Positions 9,347-56,068 of a DNA stretch of 64,000 nt are shown in pieces; the stretch's first letter is position 1, and each line of letters begins with the position of its first letter. The translations under genes were made by a program, and so were the position numbers. This stretch comes from a virus: IMG/VR virus record IMGVR_UViG_3300025732_000018; one strand, written 5' to 3'. The notes beneath the pieces are model-generated. The model made no database searches, was not told the origin of the DNA, and saw only the letters and a list, made by a program, of their open reading frames with translations.

Positions 9347-9349
9347 CAT

Positions 9350-12712: not shown

Positions 12713-13323
12713 GTGAATCGGACTCTTTCTATGGTGTGTTGATATACGCAGATACCGGCTCAAAGAAAAGAATCATTCGCGTAGTTCCTATGGAATATAG
12801 GAAAGCCAAGGTCTTAATGACCGGTGTGGCGACATACGTCTATCTTGGTGAGATAAGTCGCGACTGCATGGAGAACCCAAGTTACTACACCTATGACGTG
12901 CGAGAAGGATTGAAGTACGTAGGAGGTCCAATAGATGAGACGACCGAACAGAGACTGGTGTTGAAGAAGATCATGATTAGCTATCTAGAGAAGCTTGAGA
13001 ACGTCAAGCACATGTATAAAAGCGCGTTCATACGACCGATCATCGATGAGGACATTTACGACGCCCTCATCATATACGACGTCGGAGAGTACGAGAAGAG
13101 TGGTAAGATAAGCCCTCTCCTCCAGTCAATGTACAAGGAGAACAAAAAGTTCACCAACATGGACGTATACGTCGGCTTCATAAAGCAGCGCTATGAGGAT
13201 CTGAACTACCAGATGGCGTATCTCTATAAGTTTGAGAGAACGGTAAAAAAGCTTATCAAGAAGAAGAAGTTCTCTCTCGCTAACCAGCTATTGAACGCAG
13301 AGTTCGAGAAAAGAATGCTCTGA
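12706..13323 (+). CDS. hypothetical protein (paralog B')
   Basis: EYEKSGKISPLLQSM...VKKLIKKKKF aligns with EYKKTGVVGPILTSL...VRKLIKKEKY of B. Confidence 0.7.
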   Translation: MVSESDSFYGVLIYADTGSKKRIIRVVPMEYRKAKVLMTGVATYVYLGEISRDCMENPSYYTYDVREGLKYVGGPIDETTEQRLVLKKIMISYLEKLENVKHMYKSAFIRPIIDEDIYDALIIYDVGEYEKSGKISPLLQSMYKENKKFTNMDVYVGFIKQRYEDLNYQMAYLYKFERTVKKLIKKKKFSLANQLLNAEFEKRML

Positions 13324-14360
13324 TGGGGATCATCCTCTACACTTATCCGTTCAAAGATAAGACTCTCAGGTTCGAGAGACCATGGTGTCCTACCGTGTAT
13401 CCGTACACGCAGTCAGTGAACCGCGTCCGAACTGGTCTAGATCCGTTCGAGTACACTAACCTGTGCGAGAGCATAGTAGAGATCAAGAGCCTACCCCAGT
13501 CGAAGAAGACGTTCTCAGAGATGTGCTTTGAGACAGCCGACCGCTTAAACAAGACCATTGACAAAAAAATGTACTTGTACTATAGTGGTGGAATGGACAG
13601 CGCCGCTGCTCTTCTTTCATTTAGAAAGATGATGTCAAAACAAGACCTTGAGAAGCTCTATATCGTGGCTTCTCACCATAGCATGCTAGAGTTTCCAGAG
13701 TTGTGGACTGAGATACACTATCAGTTTGCTGGTAGGATCATCAGTTCGTATGCTAATATGGAAGACTTGGCGACCGATGGTGTAGTTATAACGGGTCAAC
13801 ACGCAGACCATCTTCTTGGGTCCGATAACATCAGGAGAGTGTATAACACGCACGGAAACGAAGGAATAACTATGCCGTGGAGAGACGCGATGCTCCCCAT
13901 ATATACGGCTCAGTTCGGTGCAGAGACCGCTAGAAATTTCATTGATGTGTACGGAGAGACTACGTGTGAGTGCCCTTTCCCGATAGTCACTGCATTTGAC
14001 TGGGTGTGGTGGTTCGGCTTCACTAATAAGTGGCAGCATGCCAGATACAAGTTTCTAGGTTATAAGCCATGGAAGAATCCAAAGAAAACATATAAGAACG
14101 TCGTTCACTTCTTTGACACACCAGAGTGGCAGAAGTGGAGCCTGGACAATCACGACTTGAAAGTAGTGACTAACATAAAAGACTACAAGCACACGATACG
14201 CTCTTTTGTAATAGACGAGAGTGGTCATAAGTCATACGTAAAAAAGAAGAAAGAATCTAGTCTTAGAATGCTCTGGTATAACAAAGAGTTTTGCTATGGT
14301 GTGGCAGATGACTTTAGCGAGCTTACCAAGTATCAAAGCCTAGAGTTCATAGGTAGGTGA
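13323..14360 (+). CDS. asparagine-synthetase-like PP-loop ATP pyrophosphatase (paralog A')
   Basis: YSGGMDS, ITGQHADHLLGSD, DWVWWF-F-NKWQ and DTP-WQ-WS-DNH shared with paralog A. Confidence 0.75.
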   Translation: MGIILYTYPFKDKTLRFERPWCPTVYPYTQSVNRVRTGLDPFEYTNLCESIVEIKSLPQSKKTFSEMCFETADRLNKTIDKKMYLYYSGGMDSAAALLSFRKMMSKQDLEKLYIVASHHSMLEFPELWTEIHYQFAGRIISSYANMEDLATDGVVITGQHADHLLGSDNIRRVYNTHGNEGITMPWRDAMLPIYTAQFGAETARNFIDVYGETTCECPFPIVTAFDWVWWFGFTNKWQHARYKFLGYKPWKNPKKTYKNVVHFFDTPEWQKWSLDNHDLKVVTNIKDYKHTIRSFVIDESGHKSYVKKKKESSLRMLWYNKEFCYGVADDFSELTKYQSLEFIGR

Positions 14361-14364
14361 AAAG

Positions 14365-15042
14365 ATGATTATTAAAACCGGAAAGACAAACGAGAGAATC
14401 GACCTTACGCATACCATGTACCCATGTGTGGCCTATATGGTTCGCGGTGAACTTCAGTCGTTCGAGCATAAGCACTCGACCGTCTACGGGTTTACGACTA
14501 AAGGTGCGAGGATATGCCTCACTGATGAGAGTCGTGACTTCGAAGAGATCGTACTTAAGAAGAATAGTTACTTCTGTATTCCAGTTCGTGGAAACGACGT
14601 GACTATCGAGAGCGACGAGTGCTTCGCTGTGTTTAAGCTAGGCTTCAATGGAATGGAGGCGTACGGTCGCCACCGGGACGAGCTAGGTCGTCTGTCTTAC
14701 ATCGACGGATGCTCTGACTCGCTTCTAGCGTTTCCACCTCGTCTTGGAGACCCGTCACTCAACTACCTCTACTTTCCACCGGGCATCGACCAGTCGTTCC
14801 ATACTCATCCGAGCATCCGAATCGGCTGTGTCATTCAGGGTTCTGGTAAGTCGAGTCTTCGTGACAAAGAGATCGACCTGGTTCCAGGAGTCATGTTTGC
14901 TCTTGAAGAGAAAGAGCTTCATCGGTTCAGAACTTCTGCCTCTGGAGATGTCATGAAGATCATAGCTTTCCATCCAGATGGAGACTGGGGTCCTACAGAT
15001 GAAAACCACACTATGCTTAACAGGACTTATATAGCGAAGTAA
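14365..15042 (+). CDS. cupin-domain protein
   Basis: HTHPSIRIG-VIQG-G ... LHRF ... FHPD metal-binding cupin pattern. Confidence 0.75.
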   Translation: MIIKTGKTNERIDLTHTMYPCVAYMVRGELQSFEHKHSTVYGFTTKGARICLTDESRDFEEIVLKKNSYFCIPVRGNDVTIESDECFAVFKLGFNGMEAYGRHRDELGRLSYIDGCSDSLLAFPPRLGDPSLNYLYFPPGIDQSFHTHPSIRIGCVIQGSGKSSLRDKEIDLVPGVMFALEEKELHRFRTSASGDVMKIIAFHPDGDWGPTDENHTMLNRTYIAK

Positions 15043-15778: not shown

Positions 15779-16011
15779 AGAAGAGCAAGGACTATCTCGA
15801 GGGGTTCTATGACGGGTTTATGGCTGCACGCGTAAGCGGAGTTGTAACTCCTCAGCCGCCTACAGTAGACACTAAATGCCACGTATGTGGAATGGACTTT
15901 GCCAATAAGGTCTGGGGATATGTCTGTAATCATAATCAATGTCCAAGCAAGATGTCTTGGGCTGCTCGAGCAGCAACAGCAACTATGATGGGAAATAATA
16001 ATGAGTCGTGA
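15775..16011 (+). CDS. small Cys-containing hypothetical protein
   Basis: MKKSKDYLEG start overlaps the previous stop; CHVC...CNHNQCP. Confidence 0.6.
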   Translation: MKKSKDYLEGFYDGFMAARVSGVVTPQPPTVDTKCHVCGMDFANKVWGYVCNHNQCPSKMSWAARAATATMMGNNNES

Positions 16012-16405
16012 CTGGGTAAAAGATATTTGGAGAATGCACAAACACTACGGCGTACATCCCGTAGTCGAGAGCATGGACGCAGACACTCTCAAGAAGTTTC
16101 TTGAGTTTCGCGTTAACTTCCTTCAGGAAGAGCTGGACGAGCTAAAGGCTAACAAGGATAACCCTGAAGAGATCGTCGACGCCCTCATCGACCTATGCGT
16201 CGTAGCCATCGGTACCCTCGACGGCTTTGCAGTTGACTCACACGCGGCTTGGGACGCAGTTCTCGAGGCTAACATGAACAAGACTCCGGGCGTGAAGGCC
16301 ACCCGTCCTAACCCCCTCGGTCTTCCAGACCTCATCAAGCCTGAAGGCTGGACAGCACCTAGCCACGCCGGCAATCACGGACTCTTAACTAAGATGGTTG
16401 AATAA
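16001..16405 (+). CDS. MazG/PRA-PH-like nucleotide pyrophosphohydrolase
   Basis: FLQEELDE...EIVDALIDL...V--ANM-K...KPEGW. Confidence 0.85.
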   Translation: MSRDWVKDIWRMHKHYGVHPVVESMDADTLKKFLEFRVNFLQEELDELKANKDNPEEIVDALIDLCVVAIGTLDGFAVDSHAAWDAVLEANMNKTPGVKATRPNPLGLPDLIKPEGWTAPSHAGNHGLLTKMVE

Positions 16406-16417
16406 GGAGAGAAAACC

Positions 16418-16993
16418 ATGTTAGACTTCAGCGGTGAAGTCATTGCAACTTTGTCAAGCTTAAATAAAGTTGTCGATATGAGAGAGCATAAGGCCGACCT
16501 AGACATGATGGTCGCGACTAACTGGAAGCGCGAGATGCTACGTAAAGGCCCCAGGTCTTACGACGTAGTTAAAAGAAATACGGCTACCGGTCTAGGTGCC
16601 GAGATTGCAGTTCAATCAACTGGCTTCTTCAAGCAATCTTCACCTATCACCGAAGACGCCAAAGATCTCACTTTCGCTCAGAGAAAGACCGACGTGATTT
16701 GCGAGGGTAAGAACGGCGAGGTTAAGACTATGAATGCTAAGTACCCTTACTGGTACATTAGCAACGGTCAAGTCGAGTCAGTCAACTACTCAACTCGCTT
16801 CAACCAGTTCTTTCTGATCGTGGCCTACGAGGAGGTCCAACCGCTGAAGTACCGCTATCGCCCGCGTTATCTAGTTGACAGCAATAAGCTTTCAGGATAT
16901 ATTGTAAAGAATAACACTGGGTACAGCCCGTATCGCTTTGACCACGTGCGGGCCATCAAGAACGGCGACTGCATCGACCTATGGAGCAACTAA
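16418..16993 (+). CDS. DenB (endonuclease IV)-like nuclease
   Basis: GLGAEIAV...TDV...GEVKT...WYIS pattern, collinear with my recollection of T4 DenB (YAEFFV...WDV...VEVKT...WISV). Confidence 0.6.
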   Translation: MLDFSGEVIATLSSLNKVVDMREHKADLDMMVATNWKREMLRKGPRSYDVVKRNTATGLGAEIAVQSTGFFKQSSPITEDAKDLTFAQRKTDVICEGKNGEVKTMNAKYPYWYISNGQVESVNYSTRFNQFFLIVAYEEVQPLKYRYRPRYLVDSNKLSGYIVKNNTGYSPYRFDHVRAIKNGDCIDLWSN

Positions 16994-17460
16994 TGTTTAC
17001 AATTCAACCGAATCATGAACGCGAGTCTGTCAAGGTACTCCGCGAGTGCATCGACCTGCAGCTCAAGAAGTCTCAAGACTACCAGAACCCGAACTCTAAC
17101 GTAGTTCAGGCCATGCACTATCGTCGCGGCATCGACTCGATCCATGACATCCTTCAAGGCAAGCTCTATCGAGCCCAGTCACTAATCGAGTCTGGTCGTG
17201 CTGACTCTGCTAACTTCGAGTCCCTTGAAGATACCTACAAGGATCTTATCAACTACGCCTCGTTCGCAGTCGCGTGGCTTCGCTACGGCGTTCCCGGCCA
17301 AGACAAAGAGCGCGACATCTTCAATCGAAAGAAGTCGACCTACAGCATCAATAGTCAGATCACTGACTCTGTAACTCAGTCTGGTACTTATCGCCCTGCT
17401 GACAATACGGTTAAGTTCAATCATGAGACCGGGGCTTATACCATCAACATGGGCTCGTAA
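16993..17460 (+). CDS. nucleotide-modification-associated MazG-like protein (DUF1599/Nmad1-like)
   Basis: LQLKKSQDY...KLYR...ESLEDTYKDLINYA. Confidence 0.7.
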   Translation: MFTIQPNHERESVKVLRECIDLQLKKSQDYQNPNSNVVQAMHYRRGIDSIHDILQGKLYRAQSLIESGRADSANFESLEDTYKDLINYASFAVAWLRYGVPGQDKERDIFNRKKSTYSINSQITDSVTQSGTYRPADNTVKFNHETGAYTINMGS

Positions 17461-17462
17461 GT

Positions 17463-18158
17463 ATGACCCTTTCCATTCAGCGCATCCGTTCTATCTTCCG
17501 GTTCATGCACGAGTCAGAAGACTACGTTATTGATAAGACTGGCGCTAAGATGATCGAGATCGTCAACGCTAGTTTCATCGCTGATGAAACTTCTATCTTT
17601 GGCACTGTCAATGAGAACTACGTCCAGCGAGAGCTCGAGTGGTACCGATCTCTCTCGCGTAACGTCAATGACATTCCCGGTGGTCCTCCTACTATCTGGA
17701 AAGAGGTAGCTGACAGTCGCGGCTTCATCAACTCTAACTACGGTTGGTGTATCTGGTCTGATGCTAATGGTCGTCAGTACAATCGGGTTCTAGAAGAGCT
17801 TCGAAAGAACCCGTACTCACGGCGAGCGGTGATGATCTACACGCGTCCTAGCATGTGGAACGACTACAATAAGGACGGAATGTCCGACTTTATGTGCACC
17901 AACGCGGTTCAGTATCTCATCCGCAATGGTAAGCTCAATGCCGTCGTTCAGATGCGATCTAACGATGCTGTCTTTGGCTACAAGAATGACTATGCCTGGC
18001 AACAGTACGTGCTCTCTCATCTAGCTAGAGAGCTTGACGTCGAGCCCGGAACTATCTATTGGAACGCAGGGAGCTTGCACGTATATGAGCGACACTTCAA
18101 GCTGGTCGTGGACTCAGAAGTATCTAAATCTAGCGAAGCACATTTCCAGCTGGTCTAA
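17463..18158 (+). CDS. gp42: dCMP hydroxymethylase-like thymidylate synthase homolog (T4 gp42-like)
   Basis: RELEWY, INSNYGW, FMCTN, MRSNDAVFGYKND (Asp at the dCMP-specificity position), GSLHVY-RHF. Confidence 0.88.
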   Translation: MTLSIQRIRSIFRFMHESEDYVIDKTGAKMIEIVNASFIADETSIFGTVNENYVQRELEWYRSLSRNVNDIPGGPPTIWKEVADSRGFINSNYGWCIWSDANGRQYNRVLEELRKNPYSRRAVMIYTRPSMWNDYNKDGMSDFMCTNAVQYLIRNGKLNAVVQMRSNDAVFGYKNDYAWQQYVLSHLARELDVEPGTIYWNAGSLHVYERHFKLVVDSEVSKSSEAHFQLV

Positions 18159-18627
18159 GGATCCAAGCTCAAAGATAGGAGCAGTGGCTGTGGGTAACCA
18201 TGGCCAGATCCTGTCTCAAGGTTACAATGGGTTTCCTCGCGGCATCGAGGACTCGTCCGACCGTCTCTACAATCGAGAGAAGAAGTATAAGTATGTGGTT
18301 CATGCAGAGATGAACTGCATATATAATGCCACGCTGAATGGAATAAGTCTAAATAACGCTGACCTCTACGTTCATGGACTTCCGGTTTGCTCAGATTGTG
18401 CCAAAGGAGTCATTCAGGTCGGTGTGAAGCGTGTGTTTATCTGTCAGCCCACTGTGATAGCACCGAGCTGGCACGAGTCTTACATGCACACCGAGTCGAT
18501 GTTCGTAGAGGCCGGCGTTGAGGCAGTTTGTTATGACAATGAAGGCAATGTTCTCCATGACACGAAGCGAAAAGCGCGTACTGATAGTGGGAATCAACCC
18601 ATCTGGCTCGGACCCTACCCGAGTTAG
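18085..18627 (+). CDS. cd: dCMP deaminase
   Basis: SKDPSSKIGA, GYNGFPRG, HAEMN, PVCSDC. Confidence 0.92.
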   Translation: MSDTSSWSWTQKYLNLAKHISSWSKDPSSKIGAVAVGNHGQILSQGYNGFPRGIEDSSDRLYNREKKYKYVVHAEMNCIYNATLNGISLNNADLYVHGLPVCSDCAKGVIQVGVKRVFICQPTVIAPSWHESYMHTESMFVEAGVEAVCYDNEGNVLHDTKRKARTDSGNQPIWLGPYPS

Positions 18628-18931
18628 CCAGTCCATCAAGAGACTCTGTAAGTGGACTGAGTCTCTCGGCTTAACTTTCTTCTCTTTCGTAAACTGTATC
18701 TCGCGACCAGGACCCTACCGAGAGTCCGACGTCGACTACGAGATGCTGCAAGAGTGTGTGAAAGGCTATAAGAAAGTAATAGCTCTTGGAAACTTTCCGT
18801 CGATGGCTCTCTCGAAGATCGAAGTCGAGCACTTCATGCTGCCTCATCCGTCTGGGCTAAATAGAAAGTTAAATGACAAGTCTTACGAGACAAAGATTCT
18901 GGAGGAGTGCCGTGAGTACATCGAGGCTTAA
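18518..18931 (+). CDS. uracil-DNA-glycosylase-superfamily-like small protein
   Basis: VLIVGINPS ... VIALGN ... LPHPSGLNR; start uncertain. Confidence 0.65.
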   Translation: MRQFVMTMKAMFSMTRSEKRVLIVGINPSGSDPTRVSQSIKRLCKWTESLGLTFFSFVNCISRPGPYRESDVDYEMLQECVKGYKKVIALGNFPSMALSKIEVEHFMLPHPSGLNRKLNDKSYETKILEECREYIEA

Positions 18932-19811
18932 AGTTCTAATCACTGGCGTGCAAGGTTACATTGGTTCGACTCTCGCTCGTGAGATTCATCTTAATCACAA
19001 AGACAATATATGTGTGCATGGAACTGACCTAGTCGAGTCGGTTAACCAGAGTCAACAGTATGTTGAGAAGTACTTCAAGGCTGATGTCAGAAATGACTGG
19101 TCTCTTACTATGGCCAGTCTGCCGGAGTATGACTGCGTGGTGCACTTGGCTGGACTCATCTCAGTCGCCGAGTCAACGAATAAACCGACCGAGTATACTT
19201 TAACAAACGTCAATGGCACAATCAACGTGCTCGAGTGGTTCAACCCTAGAAACTTTATCTTTGCCTCAACGGCCGGAGCGTTTGATCCTATCAATCCATA
19301 TGCCCAAACAAAGATCTTAGCTGAGAGCATCATTCGTCAGTATGCTCATGAGTACACCATCTTTCGCTTCTTTAACGTTGCTGGATCTGACGGTGTAAAT
19401 CGACAGATTGGTGACTCGACTCATCTAGTTCGCATCGCCGCCGAGACCGCCGCCGGAAAGTGGAACAGTATGGACCTCTATGGTACTGACTATGATACTT
19501 CGGACGGAACATGTATCCGCGACTACATTCACGTATCAGATCTAGTTGACAGTATTGTTAAAGCAATTTACAATCCAAAGAATACTAAATATGAGTGTCT
19601 CGGTAACGGTAAAGGGTACACCAATCGAGAAGTCATAAACATGATGAAGAAAGTAAGTGGTCAGGACTTTGAGGTGGTAGAACGTGGACGACGAACCGGT
19701 GATCCGGCGTTTCTAGCTCTAAGACCAAATGAGGTCAGTTCTCTTGTAGAGAGCAAATATACACTAGAAGACATGTGCAGAAGCGCTTATCTTATTGCGG
19801 AGTCAGAATGA
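18912..19811 (+). CDS. galE: UDP-glucose 4-epimerase (GalE-like)
   Basis: ITGVQGYIGS, VHLAGLISVAES, YAQTK, FRFFNVAG, DGTCIRDYIHVSDL, RRTGDP; GTG start after GGAGGAG. Confidence 0.9.
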   Translation: MSTSRLKVLITGVQGYIGSTLAREIHLNHKDNICVHGTDLVESVNQSQQYVEKYFKADVRNDWSLTMASLPEYDCVVHLAGLISVAESTNKPTEYTLTNVNGTINVLEWFNPRNFIFASTAGAFDPINPYAQTKILAESIIRQYAHEYTIFRFFNVAGSDGVNRQIGDSTHLVRIAAETAAGKWNSMDLYGTDYDTSDGTCIRDYIHVSDLVDSIVKAIYNPKNTKYECLGNGKGYTNREVINMMKKVSGQDFEVVERGRRTGDPAFLALRPNEVSSLVESKYTLEDMCRSAYLIAESE

Positions 19812-20908
19812 AAAAGATCCTTATAACTGGAATGAACGCTGCTCAGTGCAAGAAAGATTACTTCTTGCAGCAGGAACTTCAGGTAGTTCCGTCTCACTAC
19901 GCTCTTATCCGAGTGCTGGAAGATATGGGATACCAAGTCGAGCAACGACCTATCTTACTTGGCGAGGATCTCTCTGGATACGACGAGGTCATCGTTTACA
20001 TGCACAGCATCCAAGCTTTTTGTCAGCGTCTCTTCGGCGGTCTATATGCCATGGGCGCGCGACAAGACTGTATCTTAGCCTTTGACGACTGGCAGGTAGA
20101 CCAGATCTATACCAGCTTTAGAAACTACATGGACGACCTTCGTGACGATCCTCAGAAGGCGTATCGCGAGTATCTGCTCGAGCTCTATCAGGGCAAGGAG
20201 TCTCTTGAAGACATCAAGAAGTACCACGACGTGTACGTTCAAGGTTGTGAGCTAGTCCTTCGCAAAAACAGTCGTCTGCTCGTGTCGGCTTTCGCCGGAG
20301 GAGACCTGTCGCTTCTGAAGCTACAGTGGAACGAGAACAAGGTGTTCCAGTTCAACCCTAACCCGTACCATCTCAACCGTCGACCGGACAACAATTACGG
20401 CGAGCCTGGATCTATTCTTTCTTTTGCCGGCAACAACGACGTCAACCCTGCCTCTAAGCTGAGAGTCTGGAACTTCGCGTCGCTCGTTCAGAAGAAGACT
20501 CAGAAGTGGCTCAAGCAGCAGAACATCAACAAGTGGGACATCAACTTCTACGGCGCTCGGCGCGGCGAGGAAGTAAAGCAGCAGCGTCTCACCGAGTCTG
20601 AGATGTGCCGAGTCTATAACTCTCAGTGGGGCTGCTTGATGCCGGGCTACTTTCACTCTGGGTCCGGTTGGTGGCGAGCTCGGCCTCTTCAGGTAGCCGA
20701 CGCCGGATCTATCCTCGTGTGCGACGATCGTGAGGGTTCAGTCTACGGCGAGGCCTACACCGGTCTTACTGCCGACAAGGTGGAAGGCATGACGCTGGAG
20801 GATCTTATCAAGACCGCGCGCTATCAGAAAGAGTGCTTGTACGAGAAGCACCCTCTGACTAAGGCAGTCACCAAGATGGAGATTAGTGCCATCCTGGAGT
20901 CTAAGTGA
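19808..20908 (+). CDS. putative DNA-base glycosyltransferase (GT-B/BGT-like fold)
   Basis: KILITG start, AFDDWQ, C-terminal Y---WGCLMPGY...GWWRAR-LQ; between galE and glf in the hmC locus. Confidence 0.6.
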   Translation: MKKILITGMNAAQCKKDYFLQQELQVVPSHYALIRVLEDMGYQVEQRPILLGEDLSGYDEVIVYMHSIQAFCQRLFGGLYAMGARQDCILAFDDWQVDQIYTSFRNYMDDLRDDPQKAYREYLLELYQGKESLEDIKKYHDVYVQGCELVLRKNSRLLVSAFAGGDLSLLKLQWNENKVFQFNPNPYHLNRRPDNNYGEPGSILSFAGNNDVNPASKLRVWNFASLVQKKTQKWLKQQNINKWDINFYGARRGEEVKQQRLTESEMCRVYNSQWGCLMPGYFHSGSGWWRARPLQVADAGSILVCDDREGSVYGEAYTGLTADKVEGMTLEDLIKTARYQKECLYEKHPLTKAVTKMEISAILESK

Positions 20909-21903
20909 TGGCTAAGTATCTCGTAGTTGGAGCTGGTCTCTCGGGTGCTACCATCGCCCGAGAGCTTGCTGATGCCGGTCACACGGTAATAGTGATAGAC
21001 TCTCGAACTCATATCGCCGGTAACGCGTACGATGAGACCAACGAGTACGGTATTAGGGTACACAAGTACGGACCCCATCTATTTCATACTAACAACGAGA
21101 AAGTATTTGAGTATCTTAGTCGCTTTACAGAGTGGGTCGAGTATGACCACCGCGTAAAGGCTCTTCTTGAAGACGGACGCTACGTAACTTTTCCTCCTAA
21201 CAAAGAGACCAAGGAGATCGTTGGAGCAGAAAACGTAGTAGATACCTTCTATCGGCCGTACACCAAGAAGATGTGGGGAAAGGAGCTTGAGGAAGTCGCT
21301 CCAAAGATATTAGACCGCGTTCCCGGTCGCGACGACATGGAGGACAGATACTTTCCTAATGACAAGTACTGCTTCATGCCCGTAGAAGGGTACACTAAGA
21401 TGGTCGAAAACATGCTAGATCATCAAAACATTAGAGTCTGGCTAGCATACCCATTTAAGAAGCACATGGAAGACTCGTATGATCACGTGTTCAACAGCAT
21501 GGCGATCGACGAGTACTACGGCTATCAGTTTGGTGAGCTCGAGTATCGATCAATCAAGTTTCACACTACGACTGCACCTATTCCTAAAGCTCTTCCAGCT
21601 ACTACAGTCAACTTTACTAACGACGGTCCACTTACGCGAGTGACCGAATGGAAGAACCTGCCGCGTCACGGAAACAACCCGTACTTCACGACTCTTACTG
21701 CGGAAGAACCGTGCGACTATAAAGATAACAACTACGAGCGATACTATCCTATCTCTGATGATATAAATAAGGACAGGTACGCCAAGTACGCATCTATCAA
21801 GAACGATAAAGTTACGTTCATCGGCCGCTGCGGGCAGTACGTCTACATTGATATGCACCAGGCGGTCAACTCCGCCCTTAGAATCGCGATGGATTACAAG
21901 TGA
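20905..21903 (+). CDS. glf: UDP-galactopyranose mutase
   Basis: VVGAGLSG, HIAGNAYD, VHKYGPHLFHT, YTKKMWG, RYYP, GRCGQY-Y-DM. Confidence 0.93.
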   Translation: MMAKYLVVGAGLSGATIARELADAGHTVIVIDSRTHIAGNAYDETNEYGIRVHKYGPHLFHTNNEKVFEYLSRFTEWVEYDHRVKALLEDGRYVTFPPNKETKEIVGAENVVDTFYRPYTKKMWGKELEEVAPKILDRVPGRDDMEDRYFPNDKYCFMPVEGYTKMVENMLDHQNIRVWLAYPFKKHMEDSYDHVFNSMAIDEYYGYQFGELEYRSIKFHTTTAPIPKALPATTVNFTNDGPLTRVTEWKNLPRHGNNPYFTTLTAEEPCDYKDNNYERYYPISDDINKDRYAKYASIKNDKVTFIGRCGQYVYIDMHQAVNSALRIAMDYK

Positions 21904-23102
21904 CCTTCACACACGCATCAATCGTTCCCCTCATCGGCGGCGAGACTCTCGGCACCGAGCAAGCCTTCGGTCGCCCTCCCGAGTACCTTATGTCGTACGA
22001 GCCTTTCTGGGCAAACGACCGACACCTCGTCAACCACTACCGCGGCGAGATTCCCTACTACGTTCTAGACAAGAACGAGAAGCCAGACAAGAAGGTCGAC
22101 GTCATCGGGTCAGTCTGCCCGTGCGCTGGCCTCAGCATGCTTTCTCACGGCTACGGCGACGACAACGCTAACAACCGGTGGATGATCGAGACGGCTAAGT
22201 TCGTTCTCGGTGAGATGAAACCTAAGGTGTTCTGGGGCGAGAACGCTCCGGGCTTCGCCGGCAAGGTGGGTAAGAACATCCGAACCCAGATGTACAACAT
22301 CGGTCGAGAGAACGGGTACACGTTCACGGTGTATAGAACCAAGTCTCTCTTCCACGGCGTGCCTCAGATCCGAGAGAGGTCGTTCTACTTCTTCTGGCAG
22401 TCTGACAAGACTCCCAAGCTGAACTACTACAACACCCCACACAAGAGCATCGAGCAGACCATCCTAGACGCTCGAGGCAACACGCTGCAGGAGCCGATCA
22501 ACAAGAAGACCCCGTCACAGGATCCATACTACCGCTACATCCTAGAGCACATCAACGGCGGAATGACTCACCGCGAGTTCTCAGCTCAGGTCGAGCCTTC
22601 TCGGGCCAGAGGGAACGACACGTTCTCTTACATCGAGAAGCAGGGGATCACCTACGACAAGGTCTCTGAGTGGATGACTGCCAACGGATACGAGCGAGAG
22701 GCTGCGAGCTGCATGCGAAAGTACGAGAAGCTTAAGTCCGGCGGCTCGATCATGCGTCGCGGAACTGTCGTCCCTAAGGACTACATCGGGGCCTTCGTCG
22801 GCCACTATCCAGTCTCCCTCACGCATCCGATCGAGGATCGCTACATTACGTATCGAGAGGGGTTGACAATTATGGGACTTCCTGATACATTTGAACTATT
22901 GGATCCTAAGGACAGCGCCAACCACATGTGCCAGAACGTACCAGTTCAGACGGCCCGTGACATGGCTACTGAGATTCTAGGTTGGTTGAACGGTGAGCGC
23001 GAAGAGTTCAATTCAAACTACGTCTATCAATATAATGGAACAAAGACACATGAGTTCGGTGACATACAAGATGGCTCGAGAAAAATCTCCTCCTTCCTAT
23101 AA
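21900..23102 (+). CDS. C5 DNA cytosine methyltransferase-like protein with degenerate motif I
   Basis: CPCAGLS (motif IV), GENAPG (VI), PQIRER (VIII), R-IT-RE---MGLPD and QNVP (IX/X); motif I reads IVPLIGG instead of FxGxGG. Confidence 0.8.
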   Translation: MTFTHASIVPLIGGETLGTEQAFGRPPEYLMSYEPFWANDRHLVNHYRGEIPYYVLDKNEKPDKKVDVIGSVCPCAGLSMLSHGYGDDNANNRWMIETAKFVLGEMKPKVFWGENAPGFAGKVGKNIRTQMYNIGRENGYTFTVYRTKSLFHGVPQIRERSFYFFWQSDKTPKLNYYNTPHKSIEQTILDARGNTLQEPINKKTPSQDPYYRYILEHINGGMTHREFSAQVEPSRARGNDTFSYIEKQGITYDKVSEWMTANGYEREAASCMRKYEKLKSGGSIMRRGTVVPKDYIGAFVGHYPVSLTHPIEDRYITYREGLTIMGLPDTFELLDPKDSANHMCQNVPVQTARDMATEILGWLNGEREEFNSNYVYQYNGTKTHEFGDIQDGSRKISSFL

Positions 23103-23370
23103 GTTTAATGAGGAAAACCTCCTCAATGAGCTACACGCTTACATCGCTAATACATACACACAGCACTACATCGGTAGGGATAACATCCAGGCCTTTGAGC
23201 TGATCTCGGCTGCAGGTCACGGCATGGGCTTCACCATCGGTGACATCATCAAGTACGCCTCTCGCTACGGCAAGAAGAACGGCCGCAACCGAGCCGACCT
23301 CCTAAAGATCCTTCACTACGGGATCCTAGCCCTCTACATTCATGACAAGGAAACCGCTGATGGAAATTAA
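23071..23370 (+). CDS. DUF3310-like protein
   Basis: YKFNE...TY-QHY...GDIIKYASRYGKK-G-NR-DL-K-LHY. Confidence 0.7.
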   Translation: MAREKSPPSYKFNEENLLNELHAYIANTYTQHYIGRDNIQAFELISAAGHGMGFTIGDIIKYASRYGKKNGRNRADLLKILHYGILALYIHDKETADGN

Positions 23371-24235
23371 GATCGACCTAGAGCAGATTAGGAAGCTTAA
23401 GCTGTTCGTAGCTACACCTATGTACGGCGGTCAGTGCGCCGGCATGTACAACAAGTCGATGTGCGACTTAACGACCATGTGCGTTAAGTATGGTATCGAT
23501 ATGCGGGCTTACTATCTCTTCAACGAGTCTCTCATCACTCGAGCTCGTAACTACTGCGTCGACGAGTTTCTTCGCAGCGACGCTACCCACATGCTCTTCA
23601 TTGACTCCGACATCGGCTTCAATCCTCAGGACGTTCTCGCCATGCTGGCGCTCATGACGCCGGAGTCTGAGTACGACGTTCTGGGCGCGCCCTATCCTAA
23701 GAAGACTATCTCTTGGGAGAAGATCAAGCATGCCGTCAACGTTGGTGCGGCAGACAAGGATCCTAGCTACCTAGAGAACTTCGTCGGCGACTACGTCTTC
23801 AATCCAGTCGGAGACAAGAAAGAGATCCCGATCGGTGAGCCTGCAGAGGTTCTTGAGACCGGCACCGGATTTATGATGATTCGTAGGAAGACTCTCGAGA
23901 AGTACGCGGAGGCTTACCCACAACACAGCTATCGTCCTGACCACGCTCGCTCAGAGTCGTTCGACGGCTCACGAGAGATCTTGATGTACTTCCAGGCTGA
24001 CATCGACCCGGAGAGCAGGCGATACCTGTCAGAGGACTACCTGTTCTGCCAGAACGCTCGCAAGATCGGACTTAAGGTTTGGCTCTGCCCGTGGATGAAG
24101 CTGCAGCACGTTGGAATGTACATCTTCGGAGGTAGCCTAGCCGCCATCGCTTCTATCGGCGCGTCTCCTACAGTCGATGAGGCTAAGTTAGGTAAGAACC
24201 TAAAGAAGAAACAGAAGTTCAAAGGAAGAAGGTAA
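23360..24235 (+). CDS. GT-A fold glycosyltransferase-like protein
   Basis: VATPMYGG, ESLITRARN, FIDSDI (DxD), GTGFMMI, LSEDY-FC. Confidence 0.8.
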   Translation: MEIKIDLEQIRKLKLFVATPMYGGQCAGMYNKSMCDLTTMCVKYGIDMRAYYLFNESLITRARNYCVDEFLRSDATHMLFIDSDIGFNPQDVLAMLALMTPESEYDVLGAPYPKKTISWEKIKHAVNVGAADKDPSYLENFVGDYVFNPVGDKKEIPIGEPAEVLETGTGFMMIRRKTLEKYAEAYPQHSYRPDHARSESFDGSREILMYFQADIDPESRRYLSEDYLFCQNARKIGLKVWLCPWMKLQHVGMYIFGGSLAAIASIGASPTVDEAKLGKNLKKKQKFKGRR

Positions 24236-24245: not shown

Positions 24246-24905
24246 ATGAAGATCAGTGAAAACACAATTAACACTCTCAAGAGCTTCTCGGTCATCAACC
24301 AGTCCATCATGGTTCGACCGGGGTCGAAGATCAGCACGATGTCTCCCTCCGAGACTATCATTGCATCGGCCAAGGTCGAGGAGGAGTTTCCGACGCAGTT
24401 CTGCATCTACGAGCTTCCTCGATTCCTAGGCGTCGTGTCTCTGTTTGAAGATCCTGACTTCGACTTCAGCGACACCGCGGTCACGATTCGCAGCGGAAAG
24501 AAGAAGACGTCGATCACTTACGCCGCTCCAGGAATGATCGTCACACCTCCTGCTGGCGACATCAACTTTCCTGAGCCCGAGGTAGAGTTCAAGCTGGCCG
24601 GCACCGACCTTCTCAACATTCTCAAGGCTGCGACTGTGATGCAGCTTCCTGAGGTGGCTATCACCGGCAACGGTGGCAGTATCTTGCTCGAGGCCATCGA
24701 CAACAAGAACCCAACGGCCGACACTTACTCAATTGCGGTAGGTGAGACTAACAAGACGTTTCGCATGATCTTTAAGATCGAGAACCTGAAGCTCATCAAC
24801 TCAGACTATCACGTCTCAGTATCGTCTCGCGGTCTCAGCAAGTTCTCGAACGACAAGCTAACTTACTTCGTGGTGACGGAGGCTACTTCAACGTACGAGG
24901 GTTGA
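24246..24905 (+). CDS. gp45: sliding clamp (gp45)
   Basis: MKISENTINTLKSFSVINQSI, F-IYEL-RFL; synteny with gp44/gp62. Confidence 0.92.
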   Translation: MKISENTINTLKSFSVINQSIMVRPGSKISTMSPSETIIASAKVEEEFPTQFCIYELPRFLGVVSLFEDPDFDFSDTAVTIRSGKKKTSITYAAPGMIVTPPAGDINFPEPEVEFKLAGTDLLNILKAATVMQLPEVAITGNGGSILLEAIDNKNPTADTYSIAVGETNKTFRMIFKIENLKLINSDYHVSVSSRGLSKFSNDKLTYFVVTEATSTYEG

Positions 24906-24907
24906 CA

Positions 24908-25162
24908 ATGTCTTACGATTATGATACTATCAAACTATATCTTAAGACCATGAACGGAGTCGTCAGCTTCAAGAAGCGAGACGGCTCACTTAGAACGATG
25001 AAGTGCACGCTCAGGGGAGAAGCCCTCCCTGAGCAGACCGACATAGAGGAACACGCCTCGGCTCCTAACAAGGAGTACCTCGCGGTGTGGGACCTCGATA
25101 AGAATGGATGGAGGTCGTTTAGGATTGACTCTATAGAGGACATCACCTTCGTCACCGCTTGA
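24908..25162 (+). CDS. WYL/SH3-like small protein (DUF2693-like)
   Basis: F-KRDGS-R-M-CTL ... VWDLDKNGWRSFR. Confidence 0.7.
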   Translation: MSYDYDTIKLYLKTMNGVVSFKKRDGSLRTMKCTLRGEALPEQTDIEEHASAPNKEYLAVWDLDKNGWRSFRIDSIEDITFVTA

Positions 25163-25180
25163 TCATTTGGAGTCTATATT

Positions 25181-26125
25181 ATGAACGTACGTGAAGAATT
25201 TCTCTGGGTCGAAAAGTATCGGCCCAAGACTATCGAAGATGCCGTCCTGCCGGCAGACCTGAAGAACACTTTTCAACAGTTCGTTGATCAGGGTAACATC
25301 CCTAACTTACTTCTTAGCGGGTCTGCCGGCGTCGGTAAGACGACTGTAGCCAGGGCCATGCTCGAGCAGCTCGGCTGTAACTACATCGTCATCAACGGCT
25401 CGATGAACGGTAACATCGACACCCTTCGCGTCGAGATCCAGTCGTTCGCCTCTACTGTCTCCTTCAAGGGAGGAAGAAAGTACGTCATCATCGACGAGGC
25501 TGACTATCTCAACGCCAACTCTACTCAGCCAGCCCTTCGTAACTTCATGGAGGAGTTCTCCAGCAACTGCGGCTTCATTCTTACGTGTAACTTCAAGAAC
25601 CGCATCATCGAGCCGCTCCACTCTCGCTGCTCGGTCATCGAGTTTAAGATCAGTAAGAAGGACATGCCTAAGCTCGCCTCTCAGTTCATGAAGCGAGCAC
25701 AGACGATTCTAGAGACCGAGCGAGTAGAGTACGACCGCGCGGTGCTAGCCGAGGTCATTCAGAACCACTTTCCTGACTGGCGACGAGTACTCAACGAGTT
25801 ACAGCGCTACTCGGCTACCGGCAAGATCGACAGCGGAATCTTGTCGCGACTAGAGGACGAGTCATTCTCGGCCCTCGTGTCTACGCTTAAGAAGAAAGAC
25901 TTCAACTCGATGCGCAAGTGGGTAGGTGAGAACTCTGACACCGACTCGAGCATCTTGTTTCGACGTCTCTACGATCAAGCCTACGATCTAATCAAGCCTA
26001 ACAGTATCCCTCAGCTGGTCCTCATTCTCTCGGACTATCAGTACAAGGCGGCGTTCGCTGCAAACCAGGAGATTAACCTCGCGGCGGCTCTGACACACGT
26101 CATGGCCGACGTGGAGTTTGTCTAA
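25181..26125 (+). CDS. gp44: clamp loader large subunit (gp44)
   Basis: LWVEKYRP, GSAGVGKTT, IDEAD, PLHSRC. Confidence 0.96.
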   Translation: MNVREEFLWVEKYRPKTIEDAVLPADLKNTFQQFVDQGNIPNLLLSGSAGVGKTTVARAMLEQLGCNYIVINGSMNGNIDTLRVEIQSFASTVSFKGGRKYVIIDEADYLNANSTQPALRNFMEEFSSNCGFILTCNFKNRIIEPLHSRCSVIEFKISKKDMPKLASQFMKRAQTILETERVEYDRAVLAEVIQNHFPDWRRVLNELQRYSATGKIDSGILSRLEDESFSALVSTLKKKDFNSMRKWVGENSDTDSSILFRRLYDQAYDLIKPNSIPQLVLILSDYQYKAAFAANQEINLAAALTHVMADVEFV

Positions 26126-26340
26126 TGTACTACTCAGCCTGGTGCTTGGCTGGAGAGAAAGACTCAGCTAAGAAGTGCGACGGGTGTGACTGTGAGTTCA
26201 TAAAGGGCACTCGCTACATGAACGTCAAGTTCACGCTTGAGGACGGATCTAACGTCGTGCGCCTCATGAATATCTTCCTCTGTACTACCTGTATAGAGGA
26301 CTTTAGCGACTTCGTGGAGGGACCTGATGAACCCGTTTGA
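26125..26340 (+). CDS. small Cys-rich hypothetical protein
   Basis: CDGC...CTTC; coupled between gp44 and gp62. Confidence 0.6.
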   Translation: MYYSAWCLAGEKDSAKKCDGCDCEFIKGTRYMNVKFTLEDGSNVVRLMNIFLCTTCIEDFSDFVEGPDEPV

Positions 26341-26704
26341 TTACGTCAACGCCATCAACGCTGGGAAGGACATCATCAGAGAGTCCGACTCACGAGAGGC
26401 GGCCGAGAAGGGCTACAACCCCTACATGGCTAACATAGCCCTGTCTTACCACCCAGACACCGTCATGTTCGCCAACGAGATGAACGTTAACCACTGGGCA
26501 GACCGTCTGCTTCAATATGACTATCTTATAAATACTGTCAGAAAGCGTAAGAGATTTTCTAAGTGGTACAAGCCTGACTCCGAAGAGATAGACCTTATAA
26601 AGGAGTACTACGGGGTAGGGCCTGAGATCGCTAAGCAGTATCTAAGAGTCTTATCGGCGGAACAGTTGGCCGACCTGAGAAAAAGAATAATAAAAGGTGG
26701 TTGA
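26327..26704 (+). CDS. gp62: clamp loader small subunit (gp62)
   Basis: PFDYVNAIN, Y-PYM-N-ALS, ANEMN, RKRKRFSKW-K, IKEYY. Confidence 0.9.
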   Translation: MNPFDYVNAINAGKDIIRESDSREAAEKGYNPYMANIALSYHPDTVMFANEMNVNHWADRLLQYDYLINTVRKRKRFSKWYKPDSEEIDLIKEYYGVGPEIAKQYLRVLSAEQLADLRKRIIKGG

Positions 26705-27096
26705 TGATTGAGAACTTCGTTGAGGTGAGACTCAAGGAGAAGGAAGACTTTCTAAAGATAAAGGAGACGCTGACTAGGATCGGCGTCGCTTCTAAGAAAG
26801 ACAACACTCTCTACCAGTCCTGCCACATACTTCACAAGCAGTCTAGGTACTACATCGTTCACTTCAAGGAGCTGTTTCTCCTTGATGGAAAGACAGCAGA
26901 TCTGTCTGAGAGTGATATAGGCAGGAGAAACACGATAGCTAAGCTTCTAGCTGAGTGGGACCTTCTGGACATAGTCGACCCGAGTCGCATCCAGGAGCCT
27001 CAGACCAGTCTCAGTCAGATCAAGATTATTCCGTTCAAAGAGAAGAACAACTGGACTCTAGAAGCAAAGTACACTATCGGTAAAAAGAAGGGTTGA
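26701..27096 (+). CDS. regA: translational repressor RegA
   Basis: DFLKIKETLTRIG, LYQSCHILHK, YYIVHFKELF-LDG, RRNTIA-LL--W. Confidence 0.96.
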   Translation: MMIENFVEVRLKEKEDFLKIKETLTRIGVASKKDNTLYQSCHILHKQSRYYIVHFKELFLLDGKTADLSESDIGRRNTIAKLLAEWDLLDIVDPSRIQEPQTSLSQIKIIPFKEKNNWTLEAKYTIGKKKG

Positions 27097-27127: not shown

Positions 27128-27179
27128 GTAGTCGCCTAATGGGGCTACGAATCTATGTCTCGCTTAATAGGAGAAAAAC
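27128..27179 (+). promoter_or_regulatory. ROSE-like RNA thermometer in the hsp20 5' UTR
   Basis: Hairpin GTAGTC..GGCTAC, then TCTC-G-CT-TAAT-AG-GAGA: UCGCU motif with a bulged G pairing to the SD. Confidence 0.7.
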
Positions 27180-27698
27180 ATGACAGACTGGCGTACATAC
27201 AAGTTTGACCACACTTTTGCGGATCTTGACAAGTTCAACAAGTTCTTCGTCGGCTCCGACAAGCTGGTTCAAAAGGTCACAGAGACCGTCGAGCACATCG
27301 CTAAGACAGCCGGCTCTACCTTCCCACCTTTCAATCTCAAGAAGACTGACGACAATACCTACGTCATCGAGATGGCGGTTGCTGGCTTCGGCAAGCAAGA
27401 CGTCGAGCTTACTCTCGAGGACAACAAGTTAGTCATCAAGGGCCAGACTACGGTCGAGACCCTCACCGATGATGGTATTAACGTCCAGTACCTTCACAAG
27501 GGTATTGCCGACCGAGCGTTCACTCGCACCTTCTCTCTAGCAGACAACGTAGTAGTCAACAACGCTGCCATGATGAACGGAATCTTGAAGATCTGGCTTG
27601 AGCACATCATTCCAGAAGACAAGAAGCCTAAGAAGATTGACATCGCTGACTCAGTAGAACCTGCTAAGAAGACGAAGAAGCAGCTCCTCACCGAGTAA
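27180..27698 (+). CDS. small heat shock protein Hsp20 (IbpA-like)
   Basis: FPPFNL, IEMAVAGF, YLHKGIA-RAF-R-F, NGIL-I-L. Confidence 0.93.
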   Translation: MTDWRTYKFDHTFADLDKFNKFFVGSDKLVQKVTETVEHIAKTAGSTFPPFNLKKTDDNTYVIEMAVAGFGKQDVELTLEDNKLVIKGQTTVETLTDDGINVQYLHKGIADRAFTRTFSLADNVVVNNAAMMNGILKIWLEHIIPEDKKPKKIDIADSVEPAKKTKKQLLTE

Positions 27699-27784
27699 TC
27701 TCAAACTTTGTTATGATAAAAGAGTGGCTGGGTAACTCCCGGCCACTTACTCATTTCACACGCGTACTAGAAAGAATAATAACA

Positions 27785-55414: not shown

Positions 55415-56068
55415 ATGAGCTACGTGAGACTGGTTGCTGTAAGCAAGCCAGAGATACCGGGATTGGAGAACGCGGGTGACCTAGTCGCCTACTGTGCCCG
55501 CGTCTCCAACCCCTCCAACCAGATGAACGCCGAGACGGCACCCAAGCTTCTCAGGTACCTCGTCAACAACAAGCACTGGTCTCCCTTCGAGATGGTGAGT
55601 CTCACCATGGAGATCGAGACCACTCGAGACATCGCCCGTCAGATCCTTCGCCACCGCTCATTCTCGTTCCAAGAGTTCAGCCAGCGCTACGCGGACCCTC
55701 GCGAGGGTCTCGGGTTCGTCACTCGTGATGCTCGACTCCAGGATCAGAAGAATCGTCAGAACAGCGTCGAGACCGACGACGAGAAGCTGATGGCCGAGTG
55801 GAAGAACAAGCAGAAGTATCTCTCGTCTCTGGCTGAGCTGACATACGACTGGGCAGTCACTAACGGCATCGCTAAGGAGCAGGCTCGCGCGGTCCTACCC
55901 GAAGGTCTGACCGTATCTAGACTCTACATGGCCGGCACGCTCAGGTCGTGGATCCACTACTGCGAGCTTCGAATGAAGAACGGAACTCAGAAGGAGCACT
56001 CAGAGGTGGCCGACCAGTGTTGGCGGATTATCACCCAGCAGTTTCCATCAATCTCAGGGCTCCTCTAG
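55415..56068 (+). CDS. thyX: flavin-dependent thymidylate synthase
   Basis: HWSPFE, RQILRHRSFSFQEFSQRY, AKEQAR-VLP, RSW-H---LR, TQ-EH. Confidence 0.95.
   Translation: MSYVRLVAVSKPEIPGLENAGDLVAYCARVSNPSNQMNAETAPKLLRYLVNNKHWSPFEMVSLTMEIETTRDIARQILRHRSFSFQEFSQRYADPREGLGFVTRDARLQDQKNRQNSVETDDEKLMAEWKNKQKYLSSLAELTYDWAVTNGIAKEQARAVLPEGLTVSRLYMAGTLRSWIHYCELRMKNGTQKEHSEVADQCWRIITQQFPSISGLL

Follow-up and report, generated by a model that had tools for sequence, protein, structure and literature searches.

A candidate galactofuranosyl-5-hydroxymethylcytosine pathway in the replication module of a T4-like phage

Phages classically counter restriction enzymes and CRISPR nucleases with sugar-coated 5-hydroxymethylcytosine (hmC), to which bacteria respond with type IV enzymes that recognise particular sugars. 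In phage T4 the pathway consists of the gp56 deoxycytidine triphosphatase (dCTPase), gp42, the gp1 kinase, the Cd deaminase and the alpha- and beta-glucosyltransferases (alpha-GT and beta-GT). Here we analysed a 64,000-nucleotide (nt) stretch of viral DNA, IMG/VR record IMGVR_UViG_3300025732_000018 (the window), in which a gp42-type gene lies in one run with genes for a uridine diphosphate (UDP)-hexose 4-epimerase (GalE), a GT-B-fold glycosyltransferase (GT-B) and a UDP-galactopyranose mutase (Glf). Our results support the view of this locus as a T4-style pathway for pre-replicative cytosine replacement standing beside a galE-glycosyltransferase (GT)-glf sugar module.

With the T-even glucosyl-hmC pathway the locus shares a gp42 orthologue with 60% identity and the same active-site signature, a deoxycytidine monophosphate (dCMP) deaminase, an all-alpha pyrophosphatase, a GT-B enzyme closest in fold, among solved structures, to T4 beta-GT and alpha-GT, and a place among the replication genes of a T4-like genome. 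It differs in that its GT-B has no detectable sequence family in common with the T4 enzymes, in that the predicted sugar is a furanose, and in that it brings GalE and Glf as donor enzymes of its own, whereas T4, drawing on host UDP-glucose, has no such genes. The window has in addition a conserved cytosine-C5 methyltransferase-like (C5-MTase-like) gene and genes for MUG-like, DUF1599 and DUF3310 proteins, and would obtain thymidine monophosphate (dTMP) from ThyX rather than from Td.

TET enzymes are the other known route to hmC in phage DNA (PMC8256090), and phage glycosyltransferases paired with partner epimerases put varied sugars on TET-made hmC (bioRxiv 10.1101/2023.12.21.572611). The methyltransferase/TET(5mYOX)/glycosyltransferase clusters described in these two studies resemble the window in several respects: phage GT-A or GT-B enzymes transfer sugars to hmC in DNA, a C5-MTase gene is present in the cluster, and the transferases need a sugar-nucleotide enzyme encoded next to them to be active; the order TET-(GalE)-GT-Glf is also seen around homologs of the window GT-B. 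Unlike in those clusters, hmC in the window would be made before replication by the gp42-type enzyme, and the window has no TET. The texts of the two studies contain no mention of a mutase or a furanose sugar.

Furanose sugars, in the form of arabinose, are established on 5-hydroxycytosine (5hoC) (PMC13326640). Phages RB69 and DLP3, which carry arabinofuranosyl-5hoC, are like the window in the furanose predicted here on a modified cytosine, in a thymidylate synthase (TS)-family enzyme and a GT-B within the replication region of a T4-like phage, and in a phage-encoded donor route; they are unlike it in that the base is 5hoC, the sugar is a pentose, and the donor is made through an arabinose-5-phosphate isomerase, a phosphatase, a kinase and a nucleotidyltransferase. 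Rhizobium phage RL38J1 (Pootjesviridae) has galactosyl/glucosyl-5hoC, and its phage Glf has been proposed to make UDP-galactofuranose (UDP-Galf) (PMC13326640, 2026), so that the idea that UDP-Galf for the glycosylation of DNA comes from a phage-encoded mutase is not new. As in the window, the proposed acceptor is a C5-oxygenated cytosine made before replication by a TS-family enzyme. In contrast, the base of RL38J1 is 5hoC, made by an enzyme with Asn169, and the ether link goes straight to the ring; its mutase, for which related Pootjesviridae show 36% identity, is not adjacent to the transferase, and a tblastn search gave no match at E 1e-5 between the RL38J1 transferases and the window GT-B or GT-A. 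Our full-text literature search found no report of galactofuranosyl-hmC.

The locus and its modified base

The window belongs to a T4-superfamily phage, as gp47/gp46 lie at 8276-11062, gp45, gp44, gp62 and RegA at 24246-27096, and a UvsX-like protein and a DnaB-type helicase farther downstream. When the 8.2-kb stretch was compared by megablast with 50,697 phage records, nothing matched, and the phage has no close sequenced relative among them. Between gp46 and gp45, twelve open reading frames (ORFs), all on the + strand, fill positions 16001-24235 with gaps of at most 12 nt or overlaps of 1 to ~90 nt (Table 1), and ten of the twelve are backed by family, motif or fold, the exceptions being the DenB-like and uracil-DNA-glycosylase (UDG)-like genes. 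The initial annotation of this DNA, made from its letters alone, had described such a tightly coupled run, and we indeed recovered it as a co-directional one. Most of its labels also stood: the MazG-like, DUF1599/Nmad1, dCMP deaminase, C5-MTase-like and DUF3310 assignments through Pfam matches, galE and glf through their best families and Protein Data Bank (PDB) matches, the GT-B-like and GT-A transferases through AlphaFold models and fold matches, and ThyX elsewhere in the window through its Pfam family. The gp42-like label was upheld as well, and the Asp of its FGYKND motif is the equivalent of Asn177 in ThyA.

The TS homolog is 60% identical to T4 gp42 over 221 residues (E 7e-100). We aligned it with E. 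coli ThyA, T4 gp42 and RB69 gp48, using ThyA numbering, and found that the catalytic Cys146 is kept, Leu143 and Asn177 are both replaced by Asp, and Asp169 is kept; the window motifs SDFMCT and FGYKND correspond to SDFMCT and FGFRND in T4 gp42. Asp177 together with an acidic residue 143 marks the dCMP-using, non-methylating TS homologs (PMC13326640). At position 169 the window has Asp (MRSND), as in gp42, whereas RB69 gp48 has Asn (MRSQN), and the RSND...ND pattern including Asp169 is kept in all 74 clade homologs from related metagenomic loci. Asn169 is the experimental signature of all tested 5-hydroxy-dCMP (5hodCMP) synthases (Lee et al., PMC13326640). Since the TS homolog keeps Asp169, its predicted product is 5-hydroxymethyl-dCMP and not 5-hydroxy-dCMP. 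The initial annotation had named hmC or 5hoC as the base; as far as sequence can settle it, the choice falls on hmC, the Asp169 of T4 gp42 being kept and the Asn169 of the tested 5hoC synthases being absent. It is therefore very probable, judging from these residues, that cytosine is replaced by hmC in this phage.

The neighbouring nucleotide genes fit around this enzyme. The MazG-like protein is a putative dCTPase, an analogue of T4 gp56, which would both supply dCMP and exclude dCTP. The DUF1599 gene adjoins the TS homolog in nearly all related loci. The dCMP deaminase likely starts at the ATG at 18085, to judge from the in-frame codons. We also looked for the TET route, and a tblastn search of the window with the TET protein of phage C48C1 returned noise only; a 2-oxoglutarate oxygenase at 34696-35397, directly after the replicative helicase, belongs to the family 2OG-FeII_Oxy_5 (phrog_81) and not to Tet_JBP.

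The transferase and its sugar donor

By sequence, the GT-B protein matches phrog_14998 only, a family whose function is not annotated, and at least 672 relatives of it were counted in metagenomes. From 41 sequences, AlphaFold2 gave a model with a predicted local distance difference test (pLDDT) score of 92. When this model was compared with solved structures, T4 beta-GT ranked first in Foldseek (E 7e-7) and also in VIA-align, an all-against-representatives structural search (Z 16.6, root-mean-square deviation 3.8, 290 residues). T4 alpha-GT came third in VIA-align with Z 15.8, and the arabinosyltransferase-type GT of phage HY126 scored Z 12.9. The enzyme probably acts on hmC in DNA, and it is the gene neighbourhood described below that backs transfer to duplex DNA.

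The epimerase and the mutase on either side of the transferase gene would supply its donor. The GalE-like protein, an extended short-chain dehydrogenase/reductase (SDR) with GxxGxxG (GVQGYIG) and YxxxK (YAQTK) motifs, scores 210 bits against TIGR01179, under the cut-off of 262, and the next non-GalE family scores 63 bits; its top 33 PDB matches are all UDP-glucose 4-epimerases. Glf matches NAD_binding_8 at 6.8e-18 and has the FAD-binding Rossmann motif VGAGLSG at residues 8-14. Its match to TIGR00031 (282.6 bits, under the cut-off of 303.75) is split in two stretches because of a deletion that makes it ~35 amino acids (aa) shorter than the Deinococcus enzyme. In an alignment to 3hdq, the equivalents of Trp184, Arg198 and Tyr209 of the substrate mobile loop, numbered by counting on the alignment, are all kept.

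From these parts the following pathway can be proposed. The MazG-like pyrophosphatase would convert dCTP to dCMP, and the gp42-type enzyme, whose family and diagnostic residues are observed, would convert dCMP to 5-hydroxymethyl-dCMP. A kinase from outside the window would raise this nucleotide to the triphosphate, which the phage polymerase would incorporate, while the dCMP deaminase and ThyX would feed dTMP. After replication, the GT-B would move a sugar onto the hydroxymethyl group in the DNA. The donor is most likely UDP-Galf, formed from host UDP-glucose by GalE by way of UDP-galactopyranose and then by the ring contraction catalysed by Glf, and the product would be galactofuranosyl-5-hydroxymethylcytosine. 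Such a base would protect the DNA from cutting by restriction enzymes and Cas nucleases, and by nucleases directed at glucosyl-hmC. The MUG-like glycosylase may excise uracil or 5-hydroxymethyluracil arising by deamination, presumably opposite G, the DenB-like protein may attack cytosine-containing DNA, and the C5-MTase-like protein, possibly expressed late, may methylate leftover unmodified cytosines.

Table 1. Coordinates of the window features discussed in the text and the main basis of each assignment
Feature	Coordinates	Strand	Basis
MazG-like all-alpha NTP pyrophosphohydrolase	16001..16405	+	Pfam PRA-PH 5.7e-6, phrog_671 5e-18
191-aa protein, possibly remote DenB (T4 endonuclease IV)-like nuclease	16418..16993	+	hhalign 74%
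DUF1599 / Nmad1 (nucleotide modification associated domain 1)	16981..17460	+	Pfam 5.5e-6, phrog_1485 1.9e-14
gp42-type dCMP hydroxymethylase (5hmdCMP synthase)	17463..18158	+	60% identity to T4 gp42; Pfam Thymidylat_synt 1.9e-22
dCMP deaminase	18085..18627	+	Pfam dCMP_cyt_deam_1 8e-18; ORF opens 18034
Small MUG/TDG-like protein, uracil-DNA-glycosylase superfamily	18533..18931	+	Pfam UDG 23.3 bits (cut-off 24.3); ORF opens 18518
GalE-like UDP-hexose 4-epimerase	18873..19811	+	TIGR01179 galE 3e-62; PDB best 1.3e-43
GT-B glycosyltransferase, 366 aa, predicted DNA hmC glycosyltransferase	19808..20908	+	phrog_14998; AlphaFold2 pLDDT 92
UDP-galactopyranose mutase (Glf)	20905..21903	+	Pfam GLF (PF03275) 2.3e-50; PDB mutases 1e-65
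TATAAATA, T4 late-promoter consensus	21762..21769	+	consensus match; 130 nt before MTase-like gene
Cytosine-C5 DNA methyltransferase-like, divergent phage subfamily	21900..23102	+	Pfam DNA_methylase 5.9e-20
DUF3310 protein	23071..23370	+	Pfam 3e-11, phrog_480 1.8e-30; ORF opens 22993
GT-A glycosyltransferase (phrog_1574)	23342..24235	+	AlphaFold2 pLDDT 74.5; DSD motif residues 88-90
ThyX flavin-dependent thymidylate synthase (context: dTMP supply)	55415..56068	+	Pfam Thy1 1.3e-43

Gene neighbourhoods and alternative readings

The initial annotation had suggested a survey of how glf, gp42 and the transferase co-occur across phages, and we carried one out on 154 IMG/VR loci from two scans, which held 106 distinct transferases, tallying the neighbours by tblastn. 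Among the 73 loci with at least 3 kb of upstream sequence, 58 have a gp42-type TS and 11 a TET, none has both and four have neither, so that the transferase lies near one or the other hmC maker in 69 of the 73. Glf follows the transferase in 65 of the 99 loci with at least 1.2 kb downstream and abuts it in 64 of these 65. GalE-like genes co-occur with Glf only: in the 22 architecture-classed loci that contain GalE, among them those of the TET type (TET-GalE-GT-Glf), Glf is present without exception.

The transferase and Glf pair is found in three unrelated settings: downstream of motA, downstream of TET, and flanked by the deaminase and methyltransferase genes. Right after motA, glf-GT occurs in Aeromonas phage 25 and its relatives, in Stenotrophomonas phage IME13 and in Erwinia phage FBB1; the record of phage 25 annotates these two genes as not conserved in phage 44RR, and phages 25 and FBB1 have gp42 homologs of 60-64% identity. 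In phage C48C1 (Kyanoviridae; L001:7598-11045), a TET/JBP gene (3.3e-17), the transferase and glf stand in a row, and no gp42 homolog was found in this phage. A set of IMG/VR loci (L107-L122 and L172) has the order TET/JBP-GalE-like-GT-B-Glf with no gp42-type enzyme; C48C1 is without the GalE between TET and transferase. These TET-(GalE)-GT-B-Glf loci are the post-replicative counterpart of the window module. In a distant group with transferase, epimerase and methyltransferase, Tet_JBP was not found in four contigs that are just 7-25% complete. The pattern of neighbours is the one expected if the transferase acts on hmC in DNA and GalE and Glf supply its donor, and it supports that view. The initial annotation's proposal that galE-GT-glf puts galactofuranose on modified cytosine is thus strengthened in one part, the transferase family being tied to Glf and to hmC makers; the sugar and its attachment we infer.

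Several points weigh against galactofuranose on hmC made through GalE, Glf and the GT-B. The sugar, its ring form, the anomer and the DNA acceptor are all predictions. No Pfam or NCBIfam family, the T4 beta-GT family (CAZy GT63) included, matches the GT-B protein at E 0.01, and the structural Z-scores of glycogen synthase and PimA are within ~1 of that of T4 beta-GT; with further GT-B enzymes scoring less than one Z unit away, what the fold identifies is a GT-B enzyme, and it gives just a hint of a DNA acceptor. GalE and Glf both fall beneath the NCBIfam equivalog cut-offs. The sole PDB match of the MazG-like protein is a weak one to DR2231 (E 0.002), which bears on its substrate assignment, and no deoxynucleoside monophosphate (dNMP) kinase was found in the 64-kb window. 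A conserved C5-methyltransferase is odd if cytosine is wholly replaced. Glf is missing from 34 of 101 distinct transferase loci, in at least two clades, so either the transferase family accepts a different donor or it takes its UDP-Galf from the host. In a quick maximum-likelihood IQ-TREE phylogeny, drawn for the first 60 transferases, the loci without Glf group together in one clade (Shimodaira-Hasegawa-like approximate likelihood ratio test, SH-aLRT, 100) nested among Glf-linked ones, and the outgroups all have Glf; the second scan added at least one further Glf-less group. A search for residues at least 85% conserved within each group found none that split Glf-linked from Glf-less GT-Bs. 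Weighing these points with the evidence above, we lean narrowly towards the whole chain, from GalE through Glf and the GT-B to galactofuranose on hmC.

The most serious alternative is that the GT-B attaches an ordinary pyranose, glucose or galactose, to hmC and that Glf and GalE serve a second sugar, added for example by the GT-A, or a non-DNA target. A third of the GT-B homologs have no adjacent Glf, and T4 beta-GT, the closest fold, uses UDP-glucose. The GT-A lies 2.4 kb downstream, GlfT2 and GfsA are among its fold matches, and GT-A enzymes are common as DNA glycosyltransferases (bioRxiv 10.1101/2023.12.21.572611). However, Glf abuts the GT-B in all but one of the loci where it follows it, and the pair is shared by the three unrelated contexts, in two of whose carriers, Aeromonas phage 25 and Erwinia phage FBB1, no other recognisable transferase adjoins it. 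Moreover, the presence of the GT-A does not track Glf, and its matches to GlfT2 and GfsA are no better than those to dozens of other GT-A enzymes. We therefore regard a pyranose as unlikely, though it deserves to be kept in mind.

It is less probable still, and in our view improbable, that galE-GT-glf glycosylate virion proteins or remodel the host envelope while the DNA has bare or otherwise modified hmC. The GT-B and GT-A folds are generic, and another sugar-nucleotide gene, dTDP-glucose dehydratase-like, is present elsewhere in the window. Against this, the genes sit within a nucleotide-metabolism and replication module, from gp46 to gp45, and not in a structural module; 95% of the GT-B homologs with enough flanking sequence are near an hmC maker of either of two unrelated types; the best structural match is T4 beta-GT, which modifies DNA; and the late-promoter motif is absent before GalE, the transferase and Glf.

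The initial annotation had also allowed for arabinofuranose, in which case the GalE-like protein would be a UDP-xylose/UDP-arabinose 4-epimerase and the Glf homolog a UDP-arabinopyranose mutase. RB69 and DLP3 do carry arabinofuranosylated cytosines, proteins weakly homologous to the GT-B (24% identity) are encoded beside arabinose-5-phosphate isomerase genes in Morganella and Providencia phages, and GalE and Glf both score beneath their equivalog cut-offs. We found, however, no UDP-glucuronate decarboxylase or UDP-xylose synthase in the window, and the one other SDR there, at 50932-51933 (phrog_540), scores 254 bits against dTDP-glucose 4,6-dehydratase (TIGR01181) and 39 bits against the UDP-xylose synthase model. 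The known phage route to an arabinose donor runs instead through an isomerase, a phosphatase, a kinase and a nucleotidyltransferase, and the top solved matches of the two window proteins are all UDP-glucose 4-epimerases and UDP-galactopyranose mutases. The pentose version thus found no backing, and we give it little credence. Weakest of all, to the point of being nearly negligible, is a glycosylated 5hoC as in RB69, DLP3 and RL38J1: the TS scaffold, Asp177 and an acidic residue 143 are common to both kinds of enzyme and RL38J1 pairs a 5hoC synthase with a phage Glf, but Asp169 in the window and in 74 of 74 clade homologs, the 60% identity to T4 gp42 and the Asn169 of every tested 5hodCMP synthase (PMC13326640) all speak for hmC.

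Flanking genes and wider meaning

Downstream of the sugar genes lies the C5-MTase-like gene, whose product also matches the solved enzymes 3g7u (1e-9) and M.HhaI (4e-7). Its motifs IV, VI, VIII, IX and X read CPCAGLS, ENAPG, QIRERSF, YREG..GLPD and QNVPV and are invariant across three lineages. It deviates from the usual pattern in motif I, which is PL(I/V)GG (PLIGG in the window) instead of FxGxG, and in motif IV, which has PC(A/S)G instead of PCQ; the Pfam model leaves the first 56 residues of the window protein unaligned and aligns them in the XG4 homolog described below. Within the clade the protein is 62-93% identical, and its gene comes after the sugar genes in nearly every locus. Our best guess is that it is retained for mop-up methylation of residual cytosine.

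The same gene recurs beside other sugar genes. In Pseudoalteromonas phage XG4, a cluster consists of a gp42-type TS, a nucleotidyltransferase, a different glycosyltransferase, an unknown gene and, last, the C5-MTase-like homolog. When IMG/VR was ranked by the XG4 protein, a sister group emerged with MazG, DUF1599, a gp42-type TS, an optional nucleotidyltransferase, an XG4-type transferase, the MTase-like gene, a GT-A and gp45; this group has neither the GT-B nor Glf, and RSND..ND is kept in all 20 of its TS genes seen. Left and right flanks are thus constant and the sugar cassette in the middle differs between the sister lineages, which suggests, from gene order, diversification by exchange of sugar cassettes between two conserved flanks. 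In the two sister T4-like clades (L105:84-6564; L187-L238), whose sugar cassettes differ, the C5-MTase-like subfamily is a constant neighbour of the gp42-type hmC clusters on their right side. Cyanophage S-TIM5 encodes a C5-MTase-like homolog at a distance of three genes from a TS homolog whose Asn177 equivalent is Asp.

Promoter matches give a weak hint about expression of the run of hmC and sugar genes. The motif TATAAATA occurs at 1072, 2111, 11956, 21762, 26527, 41022, 43358, 44384 and 56084, that is, in nine copies, all on the + strand, against 0.71 expected; these consensus matches fit T4-type late promoters. One copy precedes the MTase-like gene, and none was found before GalE, the transferase or Glf. 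Inside the run, sigma70-like consensus matches (11/12) lie at 16875, before the TS, and at 19546, before the transferase. The DUF3310 domain encoded between the MTase-like gene and the GT-A is fused to nucleotide kinases in other PHROGs.

The GT-A had been counted by the initial annotation as a member of the modification module, and this specific membership did not hold. In three phages where the gp42-type enzyme and the GT-B were not found, namely DLP_6 of Stenotrophomonas, Cr30 of Caulobacter and phiM12 of Sinorhizobium, gp45 is likewise directly preceded by a homolog of this gene. The GT-A belongs to the core genes of the lineage, and it may or may not add a further sugar. Its best fold match is STIV A197 (Z 15.1, 21% identity, Foldseek 1.9e-7), followed by many other GT-A enzymes, among which GlfT2 and GfsA do not stand out, and in the Atlas it falls in GT2- or Anp1-labelled clusters. 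The absence of gp42 and GT-B from DLP_6, Cr30 and phiM12 first led us to read the GT-A as unrelated to DNA. We dropped this reading on finding Tet_JBP genes nearby in DLP_6 and Cr30; none was found in phiM12 or in two small Manatee Spring phages. The DLP_6 gene, annotated as 'SNF2 DNA repair protein' (L018:3452-4798; record 27179-28525), carries Tet_JBP (1e-20) and lies three genes upstream of the GT-A homolog, and the Cr30 gene matches Tet_JBP at 9e-23.

Two labels of the initial annotation stood in part. The 191-aa protein, called DenB-like, has no Pfam, PHROG or NCBIfam match and falls only in viral Atlas clusters of unannotated function. In BLASTP it reaches E 0.005 with T4 DenB and E 0.038 (~0.04) with the DenB-like protein of phage 25, and hhalign against a DenB profile of two sequences gives moderate support (probability 74%, E 2.9e-5, 102 columns), with AE, D and G..E.K(T/S) shared. 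The UDG-like protein scores just under the Pfam cut-off (Table 1) and has no PDB sequence match; it does share the E. coli Mug motifs GINP and LP(N/H)PSGL(S/N)R (GINPS and LPHPSGLNR in the window), and at ~130 aa against 168 aa it is about 35 aa shorter. A miniature MUG/TDG-like glycosylase with both active-site motifs kept is present in many relatives of the clade.

Other genes of the window may be mentioned briefly. Between gp46 and the hmC module, at 11059-15042, four ORFs have no Pfam, PHROG or NCBIfam family where searched, save two chance-level Pfam matches, and a cupin/AraC-binding domain (8e-8) was recognised in the product of 14365-15042. The interval from regA to the DNA polymerase gene holds genes for an Hsp20 small heat-shock protein (27180-27698) and a chitinase-like glycoside hydrolase of family 19 (27985-28593). 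The SDR at 50932-51933 stands amid four ORFs of no family (50110-53742), which may represent a 6-deoxyhexose pathway. An S-adenosylmethionine decarboxylase gene (55043-55399; 1.5e-20) adjoins ThyX, and this gene and a RimK-like ATP-grasp ligase gene (48555-49430) may be polyamine or glutamylation auxiliaries.

Taken together, these comparisons outline a broader picture, in which galactofuranosyl-hmC is present in this phage and in many carriers of the GT-B and Glf, a fixed hmC backbone (MazG-DUF1599-gp42 on the left; the C5-MTase-like gene, the GT-A and gp45 on the right) frames exchanged cassettes, and the C5-MTase-like protein is a functional late hypermodification step acting on residual cytosine or on hmC. 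We offer this picture tentatively, since in its entirety it seems to us somewhat likelier to fail in one of its parts than to hold in all of them. The C5-MTase-like gene raises the question of what role a cytosine methyltransferase has in a genome expected to lack unmodified cytosine.

The galactofuranose version appears to be widespread in environmental T4-like phages and is also found in cultured Aeromonas, Erwinia and Stenotrophomonas phages, and the presence of glf-GT in cultured phages, Aeromonas phages Aes508 and phiAS4 among them, makes the chemistry directly testable. To our knowledge, galactofuranose is absent from mammals. If the prediction is true, galactofuranosylated DNA could be of practical use for orthogonal labelling or, as a substrate, in the search for new modification-dependent nucleases. 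A furanose hexose on hmC would then be a new DNA base, and these phages would have diversified the sugar while keeping the base-making backbone.

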